64,000 bases of DNA from Nitrosopumilaceae archaeon (GTDB lineage Archaea; Thermoproteota; Nitrososphaeria; Nitrososphaerales; Nitrosopumilaceae), in NCBI GenBank assembly GCA_965209085.1, contig OZ242376.1:416001-480000 (forward strand), in the 5' to 3' direction. This document shows positions 47,422-56,211 of this stretch, one piece after another (within the stretch, counting starts at the first letter, position 1; every line of letters begins with the position of its first letter). A program made the translations under genes and the position numbers. The notes under the pieces are model-generated. The model worked only from the letters and a program-made list of their open reading frames with translations, did no database searches and had not been told where the DNA came from.

Positions 47422-49260
47422 ATGGGCGATATGGTGTTTGATACAAGCGCAGTGATAAACGGACAAATGATAAAACTTGCAAAATCTGGAGCAATAAAGG
47501 ACTCTAATGTGATAATCCTTACGGCAGTAATGGATGAGCTTGTATCGCAGGCGTCTTTGAAAAAAGATTCCGGCTCGGAGGGACTGCGGCAGATAAGTCT
47601 GCTGCGCGAGGGCAAAGACCGGTTTTGTGCCAAGATTATCTTTGAGGGCCGCCATCCAAGCGCTGAGGAGATAAGCCTTGCAAGACGGGGCCGGATGGAT
47701 GCGCTAATCCGGGACGAGGCAGCAGAACGCGGAGCAGAATTGTGCACCTCTGATGTATTGCAATACGAGGCTGCAAAGGCGCAGGGTGCTTCAACAAGGC
47801 TATTGCTTGAAAAATCCGACGGCGTGATGAATTTTCTAAAATATTTTGATGCAGATACGATGAGCATCCATCTAAAAGAGGGAATGATACCGCTTGCAAA
47901 AAGAGGCAAACCCGGGGATTTTCAGCTTCTCAAAGCAGGGGATAAAATCCTGGACAAAAAAGATATAATTGAGACATTCTCGCAGATACTCTCAAGTCCT
48001 GAAGTTGCCGAATCCGGAACGGAGATATCAAAGCGCGGCGCCACCGTGGTGCAGTATCTGGATTACCGCGTGGCCTTTACGCGCCCGCCGCTCTCTGAAA
48101 AATGCGAGCTGACAATTGTACACCCGACGATAACAATGAAACTTGAAGATTACCACCTCACTGAAAAACTTTTGAATCGGTTATCTGACTCTGCTGAAGG
48201 CGTGGTGGTGGCCGGCTCTCCGGGTTCGGGAAAAAGCACGTTTGCCTCAGCACTGGCAAACTTTTACAACGCAAAAAACCGCATCGTTAAAACATTTGAA
48301 TCCCCAAGGGATCTAAAAGTGGATGGCGGAGTTACCCAGTATGCAAAACTTGACGGCAGCTTTGAGAATACGGCGGACATTTTACTGCTGGTTCGGCCCG
48401 ATTATACAATATTTGACGAGGTTCGGCGGTATGATGATTTTAAAATCTTCTCGGATCTGCGTCTGGCAGGCGTAGGAATGGTGGGTGTCGTCCATGCAAG
48501 CACGCCCATTGACTCTGTACAGCGGTTTGTGGGAAAGATTGAGCTTGGAATAATACCGCACGTAATTGACACTGTCGTATTTGTTAAAGACGGCCAAATT
48601 CAAAACGTCTATTCACTCTCCCTTACAGTAAAGGTGCCTTCGGGAATGACAGAGCAGGACCTGGCCCGCCCCGTAGTGCAGATATCTGACTTTGAGAGCG
48701 GCTCCCCCCGCTATGAAATTTACACGTTTGGCGAGGAAAACGTCGTCATGCCAGTATCTGAGAGTGCGCAAACTGGCACCGCAGTGGACCGGCTTGCAGA
48801 AAAAGCGGTACTTGATGCGATCACGCGGTACGACCCCACAGCTAGCGTTTCAATAGTATCCCCCGGCCGCGCGCAGGTTCGCGTCTCTGCACAACACATG
48901 GCGCGCATCATCGGCCGGTCCGGATCAAATGTCATGCATCTTGAGCGCACGCTTGGAATTAAACTGGACATACAAAAACACGGAAACTCTGGAAACGGAT
49001 ACGATACGCCGTATGATGATAAGGATTTTGATTCCGGCACCGGAGAGGTGCCGTTTTCCTATGATGAGATTCGCAATTCCATTCTGATCAAAGTGGATCC
49101 TGAGCATGCCGGAGGGCAGGCTGACATTTACGTAAACGGTGAAATCATCGCCACCTCGCGCGTTGGCCCAAAGGGCAATGTAAAATTTTCAAAAAAAGGC
49201 CAAGCATCAAGGAAAATTGCAAACGCATCTGATCTTTCGGTACAAATCAGAGATCGTTAA
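47422..49260 (+). CDS. PIN-domain ATPase with KH domain (PINA type)
   Basis: N-terminal PIN (FDTS..), GSPGSGKST, ESPRDL, LLVRPDYTIFDEVR, GVVHA, KH motif IIGRSG. Confidence 0.9.
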   Translation: MGDMVFDTSAVINGQMIKLAKSGAIKDSNVIILTAVMDELVSQASLKKDSGSEGLRQISLLREGKDRFCAKIIFEGRHPSAEEISLARRGRMDALIRDEAAERGAELCTSDVLQYEAAKAQGASTRLLLEKSDGVMNFLKYFDADTMSIHLKEGMIPLAKRGKPGDFQLLKAGDKILDKKDIIETFSQILSSPEVAESGTEISKRGATVVQYLDYRVAFTRPPLSEKCELTIVHPTITMKLEDYHLTEKLLNRLSDSAEGVVVAGSPGSGKSTFASALANFYNAKNRIVKTFESPRDLKVDGGVTQYAKLDGSFENTADILLLVRPDYTIFDEVRRYDDFKIFSDLRLAGVGMVGVVHASTPIDSVQRFVGKIELGIIPHVIDTVVFVKDGQIQNVYSLSLTVKVPSGMTEQDLARPVVQISDFESGSPRYEIYTFGEENVVMPVSESAQTGTAVDRLAEKAVLDAITRYDPTASVSIVSPGRAQVRVSAQHMARIIGRSGSNVMHLERTLGIKLDIQKHGNSGNGYDTPYDDKDFDSGTGEVPFSYDEIRNSILIKVDPEHAGGQADIYVNGEIIATSRVGPKGNVKFSKKGQASRKIANASDLSVQIRDR

Positions 49261-49711
49261 AACGCTTCAACAGTCTTGGGTCAGAGCGCACAAACGCTAA
49301 AAACTTGCGCAGACGTCTTATCGTTTTGGGATTAAGATGGTGCTCTATGCCCTCTGCATCCTGGTTTGCCACTGCACTCTCCACCCCGAGTATCTCAAAA
49401 AACTCCAACAGTATGCTGTGTTTTTGTCTGACAGCGCGCGCCAGATTTGCCCCTTTTTTTGTCAGGTTTATTCCACGATATCTCTCATATCTGAGATATT
49501 TTCCATCATCAAGCCTGTGCAGCATTTTTGTAACACTTGGGGCGCTCACGTCCATGTATCTTGATATATCCAAGGTGGTGGCATACCCCTTTAGGTCCAC
49601 CAGTTCTGCAATCACTTCAAGATAATCCTCCATGCGGATGCTAGATGTGCCGTGCGCTGATCTGTGTGCGGCCTTTATTGATTCAAGTCTCTCCTCTGAG
49701 CTTTTATCCAT
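49247..49711 (-). CDS. DtxR/MntR-family metal-dependent transcriptional regulator
   Basis: MEDYLEVI, VSAPSVTKML, YERYRGINLT, KH..L..F, DAEGIEHH. Confidence 0.9.
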   Translation of the reverse strand: MDKSSEERLESIKAAHRSAHGTSSIRMEDYLEVIAELVDLKGYATTLDISRYMDVSAPSVTKMLHRLDDGKYLRYERYRGINLTKKGANLARAVRQKHSILLEFFEILGVESAVANQDAEGIEHHLNPKTIRRLRKFLAFVRSDPRLLKRFNDL

Positions 49712-49844
49712 CGTATATATGCGCACACTAGGGTCGTATAACTTTTGTATCCTTGAATGTTGTCAAAATTAACACGCAGGTAAACTGCATTGATCGGCGG
49801 GGATTAACCGTATTTTGTGCCAAAAACATACGTTGAGTGAAAAT

Positions 49845-50245: not shown

Positions 50246-51127
50246 ATGGCCACAAGGGCGCAGGCGTTAATTCCAATCGCAATAGCTGCGGCAATAGTGG
50301 GCATAGTGGGACTAGCCACGCTTCCAAATGATGCAAAACTTGAATCGGTTAATTTTCCGCGCGGCATTATATCCCTTGACGGGAAGCTGCTGGACGTGCA
50401 GATTGCAGACGATGGTCCCAGGCGCCTGCGGGGTCTGATGTTTCAGGAACAGTTGGAATACAACGAGGGTATGATCCTTGAATTTGAAAAAGAAGGCGTG
50501 TATCCGCAGTGGATGCTAAACCTCCAGTTTCCTTTGGATATTCTCTGGTTTGATTCTGCGGGGAAAATTGTGCACATTGAAGAAAATATACCCCCGTGCA
50601 AAACTGCACTTGAAACACGCGCGTGCACTGTGACAAATCCTGAGAACACACCGGCGATGTACATTCTAGAGCTGAGTGCCGGATATGTGCAAATGTTTAA
50701 CGTAACTATAAACTCTGTACTAAATGCTGACATTGAGCAAATCAATTTTCCGCGCGGCACCATATCCCTTGACGGGAAATTCCTAGAGGTGCAGATTGCA
50801 GACGATAATGAGCGGCGCACGCGCGGCCTGATGTTTCAGGAGCAGCTAGGATATGATGAGGGGATGATCTTTGATTTTGAAAGAGACGGCGTGTACTCTC
50901 TTTGGATGCCAAACATGCAGTTTCCCTTGGATATTCTCTGGTTTGATTCTGAGGGGCACGTGGTGCACATTGAGGAGAACGTACCCCCGTGCAATACTGC
51001 AAAGATGCCCTGCCCTACGGTGAAAAATAGCGGCACTCTGGCATTTTACGTCTTGGAGCTGGCAGCCGGATATGTGCAAATGTTTGATATAACTGCCGAC
51101 TCTGTGTTGGAGATTATATCCATATGA
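50246..51127 (+). CDS. Membrane-anchored protein with two tandem DUF192 domains
   Basis: IADD...RGLMF...GM..F...WM.N.QFPLDILWFD...Y.LEL.AG occurs twice. Confidence 0.88.
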   Translation: MATRAQALIPIAIAAAIVGIVGLATLPNDAKLESVNFPRGIISLDGKLLDVQIADDGPRRLRGLMFQEQLEYNEGMILEFEKEGVYPQWMLNLQFPLDILWFDSAGKIVHIEENIPPCKTALETRACTVTNPENTPAMYILELSAGYVQMFNVTINSVLNADIEQINFPRGTISLDGKFLEVQIADDNERRTRGLMFQEQLGYDEGMIFDFERDGVYSLWMPNMQFPLDILWFDSEGHVVHIEENVPPCNTAKMPCPTVKNSGTLAFYVLELAAGYVQMFDITADSVLEIISI

Positions 51128-51167: not shown

Positions 51168-51923
51168 ATGATGGATATGCTGTGGCTTTTGCCGCTGGGA
51201 TTTGTAGCCGGAACTGTCGGCTCGATGGTGGGCCTTGGAGGGGGAATCATAATGGTTCCTGCCCTGACTCTGGCCGGATATTCGCCTACACTGGCAGTTA
51301 CTGTAAGCCTTTATGCAATATTTAGCAATGCTGCTGCATCCACAATACTGTATGCCCGGCGGGGTCTTGTCGCCTTTAAAACCGGCATATTCATGGCAGC
51401 TGTTGCAATTCCGGGAACCGCACTGGGTGCTGTTCTCTCATCACGGGTGGATAGGGACGAGTTTCAGATTCTCTTTGGAGTTTTAATGATTGCAGTTGCA
51501 ATATACACTGCGGTAAGACAAAACATCAGCGGCGGGGCAAAAGTTGGTACCGTATCTGCTGCAATTGCAGCACTAGCTAGCCTTGGAGCCGGAATGGTGT
51601 CCAGCTTTTTTGGCATAGGGGGGGGAATCATATTTGTTCCTGTCCTAGTAATGGTGCTTGGAATGGGAATGGCGCGCGCCGCACCCACCTCGCAGTTTGC
51701 ACTCTTGTTCATATCTTTTGCCGGAATGATATCGCATACTGCACTTGGACACGCAGGATTGTACGAGGCGGCCCTGCTCTCTGCTGGCGCATTTGCAGGA
51801 GGATTGCTTGGATCAAAGCTTGCATCAAGGGTGCGGCAGAAAAATCTGCGGATAATATTGTCACTGCTTGTGGCAGCTGCTGCAATCCACTTGTTCATCG
51901 ATGCATTGTCAGGATGGTTTTAA
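51168..51923 (+). CDS. TauE/SafE (TSUP) family exporter
   Basis: GLGGGIIMVP and GIGGGIIFVP repeats; about 8 TM segments. Confidence 0.88.
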   Translation: MMDMLWLLPLGFVAGTVGSMVGLGGGIIMVPALTLAGYSPTLAVTVSLYAIFSNAAASTILYARRGLVAFKTGIFMAAVAIPGTALGAVLSSRVDRDEFQILFGVLMIAVAIYTAVRQNISGGAKVGTVSAAIAALASLGAGMVSSFFGIGGGIIFVPVLVMVLGMGMARAAPTSQFALLFISFAGMISHTALGHAGLYEAALLSAGAFAGGLLGSKLASRVRQKNLRIILSLLVAAAAIHLFIDALSGWF

Positions 51924-53650
51924 CGCAACTCATCAACGCAGTGTATTACCTGCGATGATGAGACAGCACCCTCCGTATGGAAATAATCAATTGCATCATT
52001 TATCCTCTGATTCTCCGGCTCTGCACCGCCAACTGCACCTGGTAAAATCAGGTGCGCCCTGATTTTGGATTTTAACACATCTGAGAGCTCTTGGTTTACG
52101 GTAGCTGCAAACGGACGGAGAGCTCCGCGGAACACCTCTGCTCTTGCACGCTGCACGCCGCTGACTTTACCTGCCGGCATTTGCGGCCCGATAATGGCGA
52201 TAATCCCTGTTTTTCCAACATATAATCTTGGATCCTTTGATCCTCCGGGTACAAACAACTCGAGTGCGCACTGTAAAACGGATGCGGGCGTATTGACAAA
52301 CCTGTCCACAAACTCGTCCCACTTTGCGCGCCCAATCTCTGTAAACGATACATCCGGTACATCGCCGGTAAAATGCAACATCTCTGCAATGGGGCCAATC
52401 TTTTCTGATGCAGTATTCATCCATTTTGTGATCTGCATTTGATCTGCAATGTCAGTTTTGTGCGAATGGAATTTCTCCGATATGGATGAGGCAAGCGCCT
52501 CTTTTGCATAATTGTCTATCATACAGACTACTTTGGCACCGCATGATTCTGCATGGAATGCTGCAGAAATCACCCTGTCAGCATCAGATTTGTTTGACGG
52601 ATTTACAGTTATAAAGACGCATTTTCCTGCAAGATCCGGTTTTGGAGATGCCGGTGTGCCAGATCCAACGTGCGGCCGTACAGGATAAAACACCCTGTCC
52701 CCTGGAATCACCTTGCCGTTTAACGTAGCAGATGTTGCATCGCCGCATAAAATTAAAACCATATCTGCCACCTGCGTCTGTGACAGAAACTGTCCGTCAG
52801 CTATCATGCGTGACGTGTTTTTTTGTATCTTTTCGGCAACTGTTGATATCTTTCCAAGCAGACTGCGCAGTGTTTTTTCATTATCTCCTGCAACAGCTTT
52901 GGATATTGTCTGCTTATCCTCGCCAAGCAGCGGCAAAACCTTATCACACGCTTTTTCTGTCTCTTCAGGATTCATATCCTCAAATCCTGACACGCGCATG
53001 AATTCTGCAGCTGCCTTTGGATACACTGTCTTGTATATCCTATCCGAATGCACAGGTCCCGGATTTGTTGCAATGGATGCTATGTTTTTTGCAACCAGCT
53101 CCCATGAGAGCGCCTCTGAGAGTCTGTTCTTTGCACCCTGTGCTGCAGTATACGGACTGCGAAATCTGTATGGGCGCTGCTCAAGCGGACGCTCTTCTGT
53201 AAAAAATGTCGATATTGTAATAATTTTGGCATTCTCTGCAAGAACCGGCAGGCTGCGAATACTGGTCCAAAACGTTCCAGTCAAATGTATTGCAACCGCA
53301 CTTTTGAAATCCTCAATTCGCATATGAGAAAAACACATCACGGGACCGGAGATGCCCGCATTGTTCACCACATAGTCTATCTTTGTGCCGGATTTTTCAA
53401 TTGCATCAAACATGCCATCTATCCCATCTGCATCACTCACATCGACTCCATCGTACATGGTAACTGATGCGCCGCTGCCTGATTCTGAGATTACCTTTTC
53501 TATTCCTTTGGCAGCCTCTACAAGAGGTTCTTTGCGCCTGCCAAGTATGATAACACTTGCCCCGTTTTGGACAAATTTTGTGGCTATGGCAAGACCAATA
53601 CCTGTACCGCTGCCCGTAATCAGAGCGGTCTTGTTTTTGAATTTTAACAC
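51920..53650 (-). CDS. Double-domain short-chain dehydrogenase/reductase
   Basis: TGSGTGIG, NNAG, PYTAAQGAK, NPGPV; a second degenerate Rossmann domain starts at LAGKCVFIT. Confidence 0.85.
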   Translation of the reverse strand: MLKFKNKTALITGSGTGIGLAIATKFVQNGASVIILGRRKEPLVEAAKGIEKVISESGSGASVTMYDGVDVSDADGIDGMFDAIEKSGTKIDYVVNNAGISGPVMCFSHMRIEDFKSAVAIHLTGTFWTSIRSLPVLAENAKIITISTFFTEERPLEQRPYRFRSPYTAAQGAKNRLSEALSWELVAKNIASIATNPGPVHSDRIYKTVYPKAAAEFMRVSGFEDMNPEETEKACDKVLPLLGEDKQTISKAVAGDNEKTLRSLLGKISTVAEKIQKNTSRMIADGQFLSQTQVADMVLILCGDATSATLNGKVIPGDRVFYPVRPHVGSGTPASPKPDLAGKCVFITVNPSNKSDADRVISAAFHAESCGAKVVCMIDNYAKEALASSISEKFHSHKTDIADQMQITKWMNTASEKIGPIAEMLHFTGDVPDVSFTEIGRAKWDEFVDRFVNTPASVLQCALELFVPGGSKDPRLYVGKTGIIAIIGPQMPAGKVSGVQRARAEVFRGALRPFAATVNQELSDVLKSKIRAHLILPGAVGGAEPENQRINDAIDYFHTEGAVSSSQVIHCVDELR

Positions 53651-53845
53651 GATCTGCTCTCAAATTTGACTCTTTATTTATGTTCAAATTTTGATTCACC
53701 TCATGCCAAAACATGCGATCATTTTTGTCAAATCCGGCATCATTTTGTACAGATTAAATCCTGGGTTCTGTTGCGTTGTCTGGTGCTAGGCGTGAATGTG
53801 GATCTTCTTTGGGTTGAATATCTTATGAACGATTGAATTCCTTTT

Positions 53846-54726
53846 TGATGCGAACCCCTGTAGAAGGAGAACGATTTTTGCATTAAAAATGATAGGATCC
53901 GAGGGCTCATTTTGTCATTGCCCTCCGTGCGGTGCCAAATTCTGATGGCGTCGCATATCCTATTGCAGTGTACTCGGTTCTGATTGTAATCCTCAAAGGC
54001 GTATGATATTGCATTCTCTGCGTCCTGGAACGTCTCAAAGTCGCGCGGCCCGAAATATTCTTTCTTGAGGCTCTTGTGAAAGGATTTCACATGACCGTTT
54101 TGATCTGGCGTATGGTAGTGGATGAATTCCTGCCGTACACCGTATGCTTTTACAGCTTGTCAAACTGTAATGAAACATACTGGGAACCGTTATCTGTTCT
54201 TAGAGTAAGATTTGAGCAATCCGGTTTCTTGGAGGCTAGATCTTCAGTTAATGCTGCAATGGCACCGTCTGTGACCGCTCTTGGCCCAAACGCATATCCT
54301 ACCCACTCGCGGGTAAATACAAAGGATGCTGAATAGATAACACCATCTGTCTTGACCGCACCAAACATACGTCATGTCCACCTGCCAGAGTTGATCAGGT
54401 CCTGCAGGTTTTGGCCGTTTTCTGGAGCGTATGATCTCTTTTTTGGGTTTTGCAGGCGTACTCTAGCCTAGATAATGGTATATTTTCTTAATCTTTTTGC
54501 AGTTTACGGGTTTGCCTGTAATGCAAGATATGGTGACTACCATTCTTCGTGTTCCATACGTGGGTCTGTTCTGAGCAACCTGTTGCACTGGTTTTGAGAT
54601 TTCTTTATCAATTCCGATAACGTGTGGTTTTTTGACAGCATACAGTCTCATGTTGGACGCTCCAGTATAGCGTGCGGATTTGCGAAGACTCAAACCTTGC
54701 TCCTGCATGAGTGTAACAGCTTTCAT
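53846..54726 (-). mobile_element. IS3-family element, truncated copy (orfB pseudogene, orfA end missing)
   Basis: rve motifs in broken frames (RPTYGTRR, WQVDMTY, LRTDNGSQY, SFHKSLKKE); terminal TGATGCGAACCCCTGTAGAAGGAGAAC resembles the IR of the copy at 57161. Confidence 0.85.
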
Positions 54727-54727
54727 T

Positions 54728-55050
54728 GTAACTGTCTAGAGTTTTGAAGCGATTTGATCATATGATCGAGTATTTTCCATCGTGATCTTTATGGATCAAG
54801 CCCAAACATGACGAATTGTTGTCAGAACGTGACCAAAATAACCTCAATCCTGGATTACTCCACAAGGTATTGCAGGAAAATGCACGGTTATGACGTATCG
54901 ACAAACAACAGAAAAAAGAGAACACTGTCATGAAAATCAAATATTCCCCACTTGAAGTAAAGTATTCCATACTTGAAAAAAATCTGCAGATCAACAAAAA
55001 GAAATAGATGATCTAAAATTCGCAGTAAAAGAACTTGCCGCAAAGAATGG
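54728..55050 (+). pseudogene. Possible left end of an IS66-like element with coiled-coil transposase N-terminus remnant
   Basis: Begins GTAACTGTC exactly where the IS3 copy is cut; broken coiled-coil frame (..SADQQKEIDDLKFAVKELAAK) ends at the IR of the next IS. Confidence 0.35.
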
Positions 55051-56211
55051 CTCTGTCCATGAATAAAATCAAAAACATACCATAAATCTTTTAGATCATG
55101 AACGTAAATGACCGAAAAAGCTTTGGATCAGTAGATCAGAGCCAATTTAATGAAATCAACAAAGCACAAACGACGAGGAAATCTTGCTAGATCACACCAA
55201 ATGTTAACCTCGATTATAATGAAAGCAAAAAATCAAGGGGTAAAGCCATGGAAACCAAGTCCGTTAGGACAAACCGGCTTTGACCCCCTGGGAATGACTG
55301 TGTGTATTGCCCTAAAGACAATGCAATAACTGTCATACGATGAACTCGTAGATTATCTTGAAGATTCATCACGTTTACGATCAATACCGGACTTGAAAAG
55401 AGTGCCGTCAAGGTCGGCGTTGCAAGTAGCATCTAGAATTGATAAGCATTTCATCACATGGATGATAAATTCTGCAGGCAGACCTGGAATGAAAGGTACA
55501 TTGTACGGGGATTCTACAGGAATTGCAATAAACGGGCATAATACATGGCTTGATGCAAAAAATGGATCAAGGTCCAGACGGGATTATCGTAAATTGCATA
55601 TTGTAACTACTGAAAACGGCATAATCATATCATATCCTATGATATTACCCATGCACGACGCCATGATGCACCAATATTTGAGCAAATATGTGACACACTG
55701 CCGCACGGTTCCGGTCATGTGATGCTTGATGCAGCATATCTTTCACGCAACATATGCACGCTCATAGAAAAGATTGGACGAATTCCTGTAACAATGCCAA
55801 GAAAAGATGTTCGCGTACGTGGATTTGACGCAATGGGAAAGATGCTTCGATGGCATCGTGATAATCCTGATGAATTTCTATCCATATACCACAAACGTAG
55901 CAACGTAGAGGCCACGTTTTCATCCATGAAGAGAAGGTTTTCATCCACTCTGAGTACACGCAAATTTGCAACACAGAAAATTGAATTATGCTTTTTTGTC
56001 TTGTGTTATAATATTCACATTCTAGCTGCCGCAGTCTAGATTCTGACACTTTGTGTCGAATACGATCCTAGCGTATGCTATACTCTAAAACCCAATATTT
56101 GCAATACTGACAAGATGAGCAGGGCTTGATAATGGCGAATTGGTGGACATGTTGCATGATTTTGAATAAATTTGATCGGATTTTATAAAAAATGCTCATT
56201 CATGGACAGAG
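55051..56211 (+). mobile_element. IS5-like (DDE_Tnp_1) element with pseudogenised transposase
   Basis: Perfect 14-bp IRs CTCTGTCCATGAAT (55051-55064) / ATTCATGGACAGAG (56198-56211); motifs GDSTG, YRKLH, LDAAY, YHKRSNVEATFS in broken frames. Confidence 0.85.

Follow-up and report, generated by a model that had tools for sequence, protein, structure and literature searches.

A 64,000-nucleotide stretch of contig OZ242376.1 (positions 416,001 to 480,000; hereafter the window), from a Nitrosopumilaceae archaeon, encodes a protein that is a double short-chain dehydrogenase/reductase (SDR) of the malonyl-coenzyme A (CoA) reductase (MCR) type. As far as is visible, it is the strongest candidate for malonyl-CoA reductase in the thaumarchaeal 3-hydroxypropionate/4-hydroxybutyrate (HP/HB) cycle, and perhaps for the succinyl-CoA reductase too, a candidate that concerns a carbon-fixation step of the abundant ammonia-oxidizing archaea (AOA). 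We put the chances at about even that the gene encodes the NADPH-dependent malonyl-CoA reductase of this cycle, perhaps also acting on succinyl-CoA.

PMC6038301 (2018) lists the malonyl-CoA, acryloyl-CoA and succinyl-CoA reductases and the succinic semialdehyde reductase of Nitrosopumilus maritimus as unidentified, with the activities measured. PMC6964070 likewise lists the malonyl-CoA reductase step as missing, and a 2026 preprint still treats it as being without the crenarchaeal enzyme. The literature searched held no paper identifying an AOA enzyme for the step, which agrees with a preliminary description of the window, made from its letters, in which the step was said to be without a confirmed enzyme. 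That description also suspected that the proposal had been raised before on homology, and rightly so. Hallam et al. 2006 (PMC1403158) named as a candidate an SDR of Cenarchaeum symbiosum with 32% identity over an interval of Chloroflexus MCR. Because of the kinship of our source genome with C. symbiosum, this protein is probably an orthologue of the double SDR discussed here. The idea of such a candidate is not new.

Structural and profile matches to malonyl-CoA reductase

Full-length MCR consists of an N-terminal half (MCR-N; SDR1 and SDR2) and a C-terminal, acyl-CoA-reducing half (MCR-C; SDR3, an extra domain and SDR4). An AlphaFold2 model of the window protein, built on an alignment of its orthologues, has a mean predicted local distance difference test score (pLDDT) of 86.6 and a predicted template-modeling (TM) score of 0.88. 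It predicts a classical SDR sheet to residue 195, followed after the PGPV strand by inserted lid helices at residues 203-221, 228-241, 246-252 and 258-284. A second, seven-stranded Rossmann-like domain is modeled at residues 344-570, its strands alternating with helices and its pLDDT mostly above 90; values below 50 occur only at 151-160, the extra active-site loop, and at 317-324. The second SDR domain has neither a glycine-rich motif nor Y-x3-K. A helical insertion and a degenerate second SDR had been read from the sequence in the preliminary description, and both reappear in the model (203-284, and a motif-less 344-570).

When the model was compared with the PDB by Foldseek, ranks 1 to 24 were all MCR-N or MCR-C entries, with E-values of 7e-25 to 4e-19 and alignments spanning the whole chain. 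The query and target TM-scores were 0.68-0.69 and 0.72-0.74 for the MCR-N halves and 0.65-0.72 and 0.59-0.65 for the MCR-C halves. These entries were followed by a yeast double SDR (TM-score 0.56) and then by single SDRs (about 0.36). The best single match was 8hi6, an MCR-N bound to malonate semialdehyde, and the best solved relatives by sequence were also the two full-length MCRs. The closest structural matches are MCR halves and not unrelated SDRs, the outcome on which the preliminary description had made its proposal depend.

At the level of sequence, a profile of the family favors SDR3 (84.0 and 83.1 bits) over SDR1 (70.7 and 71.2 bits) by about 12 bits in both full-length structures. P0184, which is 1217 aa long and has two units from the canonical MCR clades, shares 32% identity with the window protein in the C unit and 26% in the N unit by BLASTP. 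Pfam places adh_short over residues 7-203 (E 1.2e-36) and leaves the remainder without a named family, and NCBIfam returns SDR matches only, all below threshold. A Cenarchaeum sponge symbiont has the nearest named relative, 74% identical and labeled "alcohol dehydrogenase," and Nitrosopumilus relatives at about 60% identity are labeled only as SDR-family oxidoreductases.

A third clade of MCR-type proteins

A quick IQ-TREE phylogeny was built from 84 catalytic-domain rows, with representative-search proteins limited to those above 600 aa (plus P0121) and domain matches to those of at least 150 profile positions. Four clades were recovered: MCR-C (20 rows, support 100), MCR-N (21 rows, support 100), a clade 3 that unites the AOA proteins with various fusion proteins (24 rows, support 98), and a clade 4 (7 rows, support 99) to which the second units of the fusion proteins belong. 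Taken together, the tree and the profile results therefore place the AOA protein within the MCR-type superfamily but in neither canonical half. Judged by these sequences, the AOA family is a third lineage of MCR-type double SDRs in which the lysine has moved to Y+7, seven residues past the catalytic tyrosine.

Active-site motif and residue correspondences

Conservation was assessed on an alignment of 17 orthologues that were drawn from four archaeal families and share 45-74% identity with the window protein. Invariant among them are the core motifs TGSGTGIG (residues 12-19), Arg38 and Arg39 after strand 2, Asp70 and NNAG (96-99), together with Thr148, Tyr161, Arg164, Tyr167, Gln171 and Lys174; Y-x3-Q-x2-K is therefore a family trait and not an accident of one gene. 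Thr148 and Tyr167 of the SDR triad are retained, with Tyr167 aligning gap-free to the classical SDR tyrosine and Thr148 to the catalytic Ser/Thr. An unbroken invariant run, Asn196-Ala214 (NPGPVHSDRIYKTVYPKAA), is followed by Arg219. Within the lid, Arg204, Lys207, Lys212, Arg219, Lys267 and Lys274 do not vary, the later helix adding Gln276 and Asn278, and the second domain carries an invariant F-R-G-A-L-R-P block at residues 507-513.

The pattern was followed through 95 rows from all four clades (Table 1). All 36 AOA rows contain YxxRxxY, as do all 20 MCR-C rows. Since Gln/Lys occurs in 47/47 clade-3 rows and Lys/Gln in 20/20 of MCR-C, the reciprocal swap of these two residues is correct and general. 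The preliminary description had noted YxxxQ with a lysine at Y+7, now seen in 36/36 AOA rows, and had given the reciprocal motif for MCR-C; the MCR-C sequences bear this out (20/20 Lys/Gln, all with YxxRxxY).

Table 1. Active-site spacing and the residues at Y+4 and Y+7 in 95 catalytic-domain rows
Group	Rows	Ser/Thr-to-Tyr spacing	Y+4/Y+7
AOA	36	19 (36/36)	Gln/Lys (36/36)
Other clade 3	11	19-21 (11/11)	Gln/Lys (11/11)
MCR-C	20	18 (11/20 rows measurable by the pattern used)	Lys/Gln (20/20)
MCR-N	21	13 (21/21)	Lys/Leu (21/21)
Clade 4	7	13 (7/7)	Lys/Leu, Ile or Gln (7/7)

Counted on an alignment to RfxMCR, Thr148 corresponds to Ser731, Tyr161/Arg164/Tyr167 to Tyr743/Arg746/Tyr749 and Gln171 to Lys753, while Arg204 aligns with Arg785. 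Arg785, Arg799 and Arg1164 (RfxMCR numbering) are the CoA-contacting residues of MCR-C. According to PMC10470521, the YxxRxxY residues of RfxMCR bind the malonate part, and mutagenesis found several of the positions aligned here to be required. The same text names Arg41 and Arg616 of MCR as ligands of the 2'-phosphate; Arg38 lies within the stretch aligned to that MCR segment and may be their equivalent. By alignment count, an arginine is found 13-15 residues past PGPV-x3-Arg in clade 3 and 14 past it in MCR-C (Rfx Arg799), and MCR-N and clade 4 have no arginine at 13-15 residues past this motif.

Bacterial and giant fusion relatives

An exhaustive representative search returned 39 proteins at E <= 1e-30, AOA fragments among them. 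The others include proteins about 1100-1700 aa long, with a clade-3 unit followed by a clade-4 unit, and very large ones of 2552-6910 aa. The clade-3 then clade-4 order is found in P0135, P0139, P0152, P0138, P0144 and P0149, and clade 4 bears the hallmarks of MCR-N (spacing 13, Y-x3-K). The largest proteins (P0149, P0155, P0160, P0126 and P0127, 2552-6910 aa) each contain clade-3 MCR-like units. Domains were mapped by Pfam on P0149 and P0155 and by phmmer on the others. Upstream of the clade-3 unit lie an enoyl-CoA hydratase (P0149, P0155, P0160 and P0126), an AMP-binding ligase (P0155, P0160 and P0126) and a reductase of the zinc alcohol dehydrogenase (Zn-ADH) type (P0149 and P0160), and a clade-4 unit comes after it in P0149, P0155 and P0160. 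P0126 is the closest fusion relative, 38% identical to the window protein over residues 7-543. In the P0144 and P0149 clusters, the members that bear names come from metagenome-assembled genomes of Deltaproteobacteria, Ca. Binatia and Ca. Deferrimicrobium. The JGI name of P0127, "phosphoenolpyruvate carboxykinase," hints at further domains in that protein.

Propionyl-CoA synthase is made up of three domain types, a ligase, a hydratase and an enoyl reductase (PMC1403158). As the upstream domains are parts of propionyl-CoA synthase, the fusions gather the domain types required to go from malonyl-CoA to propionyl-CoA, and the giant proteins look like whole stretches of a 3-hydroxypropionate pathway in one chain. 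The two reductase units would suit two steps. Clade 4, with its MCR-N hallmarks, fits the aldehyde step, which leaves the clade-3 unit for thioester reduction; this is the reaction that the clade-3 unit would perform in the fusions.

Distribution among ammonia-oxidizing archaea

The search for the gene covered 400 further genomes of the class, each with a completeness of 80% or more. The E-values separate into two groups, and none lies between 4.6e-73 and 4.2e-18. Strong matches (E <= 5e-73) were obtained in 321/328 genomes of four families (f1 225/231, f2 10/10, f3 82/83 and f5 4/4) and in 0/72 genomes of the other 17 families, where the best E-value was 5e-17. The seven genomes of the four families that have no strong match (G186, G280, G328, G349, G372, G389 and G214) are in 90-220 contigs and 86-97% complete. 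Values near 1e-90 stem from one open frame whose match is split in two by an insertion, as shown for G099 and G120. The ammonia monooxygenase gene amoA (PF12942), which is present in the source genome, marks the same four families (f1 222/231, f2 10/10, f3 78/83 and f5 4/4; 0/72 elsewhere). These tallies take in six genomes flagged as unpublished (G115, G213, G265, G309, G393 and G347), all of which have both genes; with these removed, the double-SDR counts are 220/226 for f1 and 81/82 for f3. Presence in nearly all AOA sampled and in 0/72 relatives lacking amoA is the kind of pattern that the preliminary description had proposed as a check.

Other candidate enzymes in the genome

The double-SDR gene has one full-length copy in the source genome, a single contig of 1.69 Mb that is 98% complete. 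Two further matches in it are ordinary SDRs with 27-37% identity to the N-terminal part only. No PF00171 aldehyde dehydrogenase was found in this genome, while the control matched 14/14 genomes, and its two PF01118 genes are one argC and one asd, with no spare asd paralogue. No other known type of CoA-acylating aldehyde dehydrogenase is therefore visible. The malonyl-CoA/succinyl-CoA reductase of the Sulfolobales is a paralogue of aspartate-semialdehyde dehydrogenase, and the view of the preliminary description that such an enzyme is missing is upheld in the source genome by the finding of only one asd and one argC. Three weak matches to PF07993 (fatty-acyl-CoA reductase type; 20-29 bits) lie in open reading frames (ORFs) sized like ordinary epimerases. 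The genome also encodes one 4-hydroxybutyryl-CoA-dehydratase-type gene and one iron alcohol dehydrogenase (Fe-ADH) distinct from glycerol-1-phosphate dehydrogenase; in 2015, Otte reportedly described an Fe-ADH malonic semialdehyde reductase of AOA.

That the source genome shows just one candidate of any known type could also mean that the double SDR reduces succinyl-CoA only, with malonyl-CoA left to some unrecognized enzyme. Both acyl-CoA reductases are listed as unassigned in PMC6038301, and a C4 acyl group could fit the carboxylate-binding motif. The fusion partners, however, point to the stretch from malonyl-CoA to propionyl-CoA, and in MCR this motif binds malonate (PMC10470521), so we consider a dedicated succinyl-CoA reductase very unlikely.

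Weighing the proposed role

Three points favor an acyl-CoA-reducing role for the AOA protein: the long Ser/Thr-to-Tyr loop, the reciprocal Lys/Gln pair, and the order of units in the fusions. Our lean toward the role of MCR-C rests on these local characters and on the fusion partners.

Several observations weigh against this assignment. The classical catalytic lysine at Y+4 is absent, with a glutamine in its place and the lysine at Y+7 in 47/47 clade-3 rows. In the tree the AOA protein falls outside the MCR-C clade, and the fork among the four clades is open. Trees of 80 rows, from which two long-branched proteins and one outgroup row had been dropped, were constrained to join clade 3 with MCR-C or with MCR-N; their log-likelihoods exceeded that of the quick free tree by 11.7 and 14.0, respectively, and their p-values in the approximately unbiased test were 0.79 and 0.77, making the constrained trees equally good. 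The 80-row free tree sets clade 3 beside clade 4 (support 85). In an HHalign comparison of 35 AOA sequences with 18 MCR-N halves and 18 MCR-C halves, MCR-N scored 294.9 over 400 columns and MCR-C 283.0 over 518 columns, and the MCR-N halves, at 487-564 aa, are close in length to the AOA protein at 576 aa. The AOA lid has about 87 residues in four helices as compared with 150 residues in eight helices for the extra domain of RfxMCR. Arg219, although invariant, lies one residue off the position of Rfx Arg799 by alignment count. HHalign pairs Val525 with an arginine of the MCR-C representative that is, by count, maybe Rfx Arg1164 in SDR4, but over the extra domain and SDR4 its alignment is of too low confidence to be relied on. 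No clade-4 unit was seen in the domain mapping of P0126, and no HP/HB genes adjoin the double-SDR gene in the window. A distribution restricted to AOA would fit any AOA-specific pathway. Finally, the literature searched held no assay of any clade-3 enzyme.

The likeness to the acyl-CoA-reducing half of Chloroflexus MCR drawn in the preliminary description thus stands in part. The protein is an MCR-type double SDR, as Foldseek ranks 1 to 24 attest, but the specific tie to MCR-C does not hold, as the fold matches both halves equally, HHalign gives 295 for MCR-N and 283 for MCR-C, and the family forms a separate clade. By sequence profile the global comparison is a tie. Nor do the constrained trees favor either half as the partner of the family, and a phylogenetic placement with one or the other was set aside.

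The slightly higher HHalign score against MCR-N, the length near that of MCR-N and the top Foldseek match (8hi6) would all suit an enzyme that reduces a small 3-oxo acid, such as malonate or succinic semialdehyde, to the alcohol and so acts as a functional analogue of MCR-N. The YxxRxxY of SDR1 also binds malonate semialdehyde (PMC10470521), and succinic semialdehyde reductase is another of the enzymes that PMC6038301 lists as unidentified in N. maritimus. Against this, the protein resembles MCR-C and not MCR-N in its loop spacing and its Lys/Gln pair, and the fusions hold a separate MCR-N-like unit, clade 4, beside the clade-3 unit. Moreover, the Fe-ADH gene of the source genome belongs to the family reportedly published as malonic semialdehyde reductase. 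An alcohol-forming role seems to us quite improbable.

A role outside the cycle has also been considered, as a carbonyl or enoyl reductase of another AOA-specific pathway or as an enoyl-CoA reductase with a FabI-like motif. The motif of FabI is Tyr-x6-Lys, and the lysine at Y+7 recalls such enoyl-acyl carrier protein reductases. Being confined to AOA does not single out carbon fixation, and the conserved neighbor of the gene is a TauE-type membrane gene in place of any gene of the HP/HB cycle. On the other hand, the MCR-specific YxxRxxY and the whole double-SDR fold are retained, Tyr167 and Thr148 keep their gap-free alignment to the classical tyrosine and the catalytic Ser/Thr, and the fusion proteins already hold an enoyl reductase of the Zn-ADH type. 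On balance, we judge a role of this kind unlikely.

Proposed mechanism and significance

For the malonyl-CoA reductase role, the proposed reaction is malonyl-CoA + NADPH -> malonate semialdehyde + CoA, its substrate and every mechanistic step being what we infer from the comparisons above. The first SDR domain would bind NADPH via TGSGTGIG, Arg38 and Asp70. Tyr161-x-x-Arg164-x-x-Tyr167 would grip the free carboxylate of the malonyl group. As the hydride is transferred, Thr148 and Tyr167 would polarize the carbonyl of the thioester and protonate it. Gln171 would occupy the usual place of the lysine by the nicotinamide ribose, and Lys174 could reach in from one helix turn further on. The basic lid (201-287) and the silent second SDR domain may then close the pocket around the CoA part.

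More tentatively, it is possible that the double SDR is the sole acyl-CoA reductase of the thaumarchaeal cycle and acts on both malonyl-CoA and succinyl-CoA. In this joint reading, which we think less probable than its opposite, the Gln/Lys arrangement would define a third, independently specialized MCR-type lineage whose bacterial members occur in very large malonyl-CoA to propionyl-CoA fusions. If so, the aerobic CO2-fixation pathway with the best energy efficiency would share the enzyme stock of its key reductive step with the Chloroflexus bicycle and not with the crenarchaeal cycle. A confirmed enzyme would complete the thaumarchaeal pathway and give a specific marker gene for this variant of the cycle. 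It would also supply a small, oxygen-tolerant malonyl-CoA reductase for the production of 3-hydroxypropionate, and show how an SDR operates with its lysine moved to Y+7.

Gene layout and surroundings

The ORF list contains the frame at 51920-53650 with both of the sequence strings quoted from it in the preliminary description. The frame is intact over 51920-53650 (-), its GTG start matches the starts of the orthologues in position, and the orthologues align from end to end. The domains and neighboring features are given in Table 2. Residues 288-330 match the C-terminal part of single SDRs in a profile search (second stretch of 2p68).

Table 2. Features of the double-SDR gene and its neighbors (window coordinates)
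Feature	Position	Strand	Basis or remarks
Whole double-SDR gene, 576 aa	51920..53650	-	ORF list; begins with GTG at 53650 and ends with the stop codon at 51920-51922
Catalytic SDR core, residues 1-200	53051..53650	-	adh_short match; aligns to MCR SDR1 and SDR3
Active-site segment, residues 148-174	53129..53209	-	Thr148, Tyr161-x-x-Arg164-x-x-Tyr167, Gln171, Lys174
Helical insertion (lid), residues 201-287	52790..53050	-	begins where the MCR-C extra domain begins
Return to first SDR fold, residues 288-330	52661..52789	-	helices 291-310 and last strand (model)
Second, non-catalytic SDR-like domain, residues 340-576	51923..52633	-	model and whole-chain Foldseek alignments
612-aa protein	47422..49260	+	T2SSE-type ATPase core and KH domain
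DtxR-type iron-dependent repressor	49247..49726	-	adjoins the 612-aa T2SSE/KH protein
293-aa protein	50246..51127	+	two tandem DUF192 domains, nearly repeated sequence
TauE/SafE-family membrane gene	51168..51923	+	convergent with the double-SDR gene, with a 4-base overlap of the 3' ends
Insertion-sequence pieces	53740..56039		just upstream of the double-SDR gene; all short ORFs

The TauE gene adjoins the double-SDR gene or sits one ORF off in L004, L005, L023, L033 and L035, loci from three AOA families, and in L004, L023, L033 and L035 its 3' end lies toward that of the SDR gene. It is absent beside the double-SDR gene in the two f3 loci examined. Nitrosopumilus-type loci have a conserved 150-aa ORF directly after the double-SDR gene (L005:3303-3755, L017:1045-1497, L023:1046-1495 and L013:1036-1488). 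This ORF has no Pfam match in the two copies scanned (L005 and L017), and a Nitrosopumilus-type query found no match to it in the source genome. The insertion-sequence pieces comprise an integrase-core fragment (rve_3/rve_2), an HTH_21 fragment and a DDE_Tnp_1 fragment.

Comparison with known systems

The Sulfolobales malonyl-CoA/succinyl-CoA reductase catalyzes the reaction proposed for the double SDR in the crenarchaeal version of the same cycle. Its semialdehyde-dehydrogenase fold is unrelated, whereas Pfam finds only SDR families in the AOA protein. A closer parallel is offered by MCR-C of Roseiflexus and Chloroflexus (8hi5, 8a30, 8j29 and 6k8s), which shares with the AOA protein a catalytic SDR followed by a silent one, an insertion that begins right after PGPV-x3-Arg, motifs of the NADPH type, and YxxRxxY. 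MCR-C is fused behind an MCR-N half, while the AOA protein stands alone. MCR-N (8hi6, 8aew and 6k8v) is alike in fold, in YxxRxxY and in its use of a threonine as the catalytic hydroxyl, but it has a loop 6 residues shorter, a classical Y-x3-K with leucine at Y+7, and no arginine 13-15 residues past PGPV-x3-Arg. The nearest kin are the clade-3 units of the fusion proteins (P0135, P0139, P0152, P0138, P0144, P0149, P0159, P0126, P0127, P0155 and P0160), which belong to the same clade as the AOA proteins (support 98), carry Y-x3-Q-x2-K in 11/11 rows, and match over the full length of the profile with an HHalign score of 727. These units are fused to other domains, most of them with a second, MCR-N-like unit, in contrast to the AOA protein, which is encoded as a single, stand-alone double SDR.

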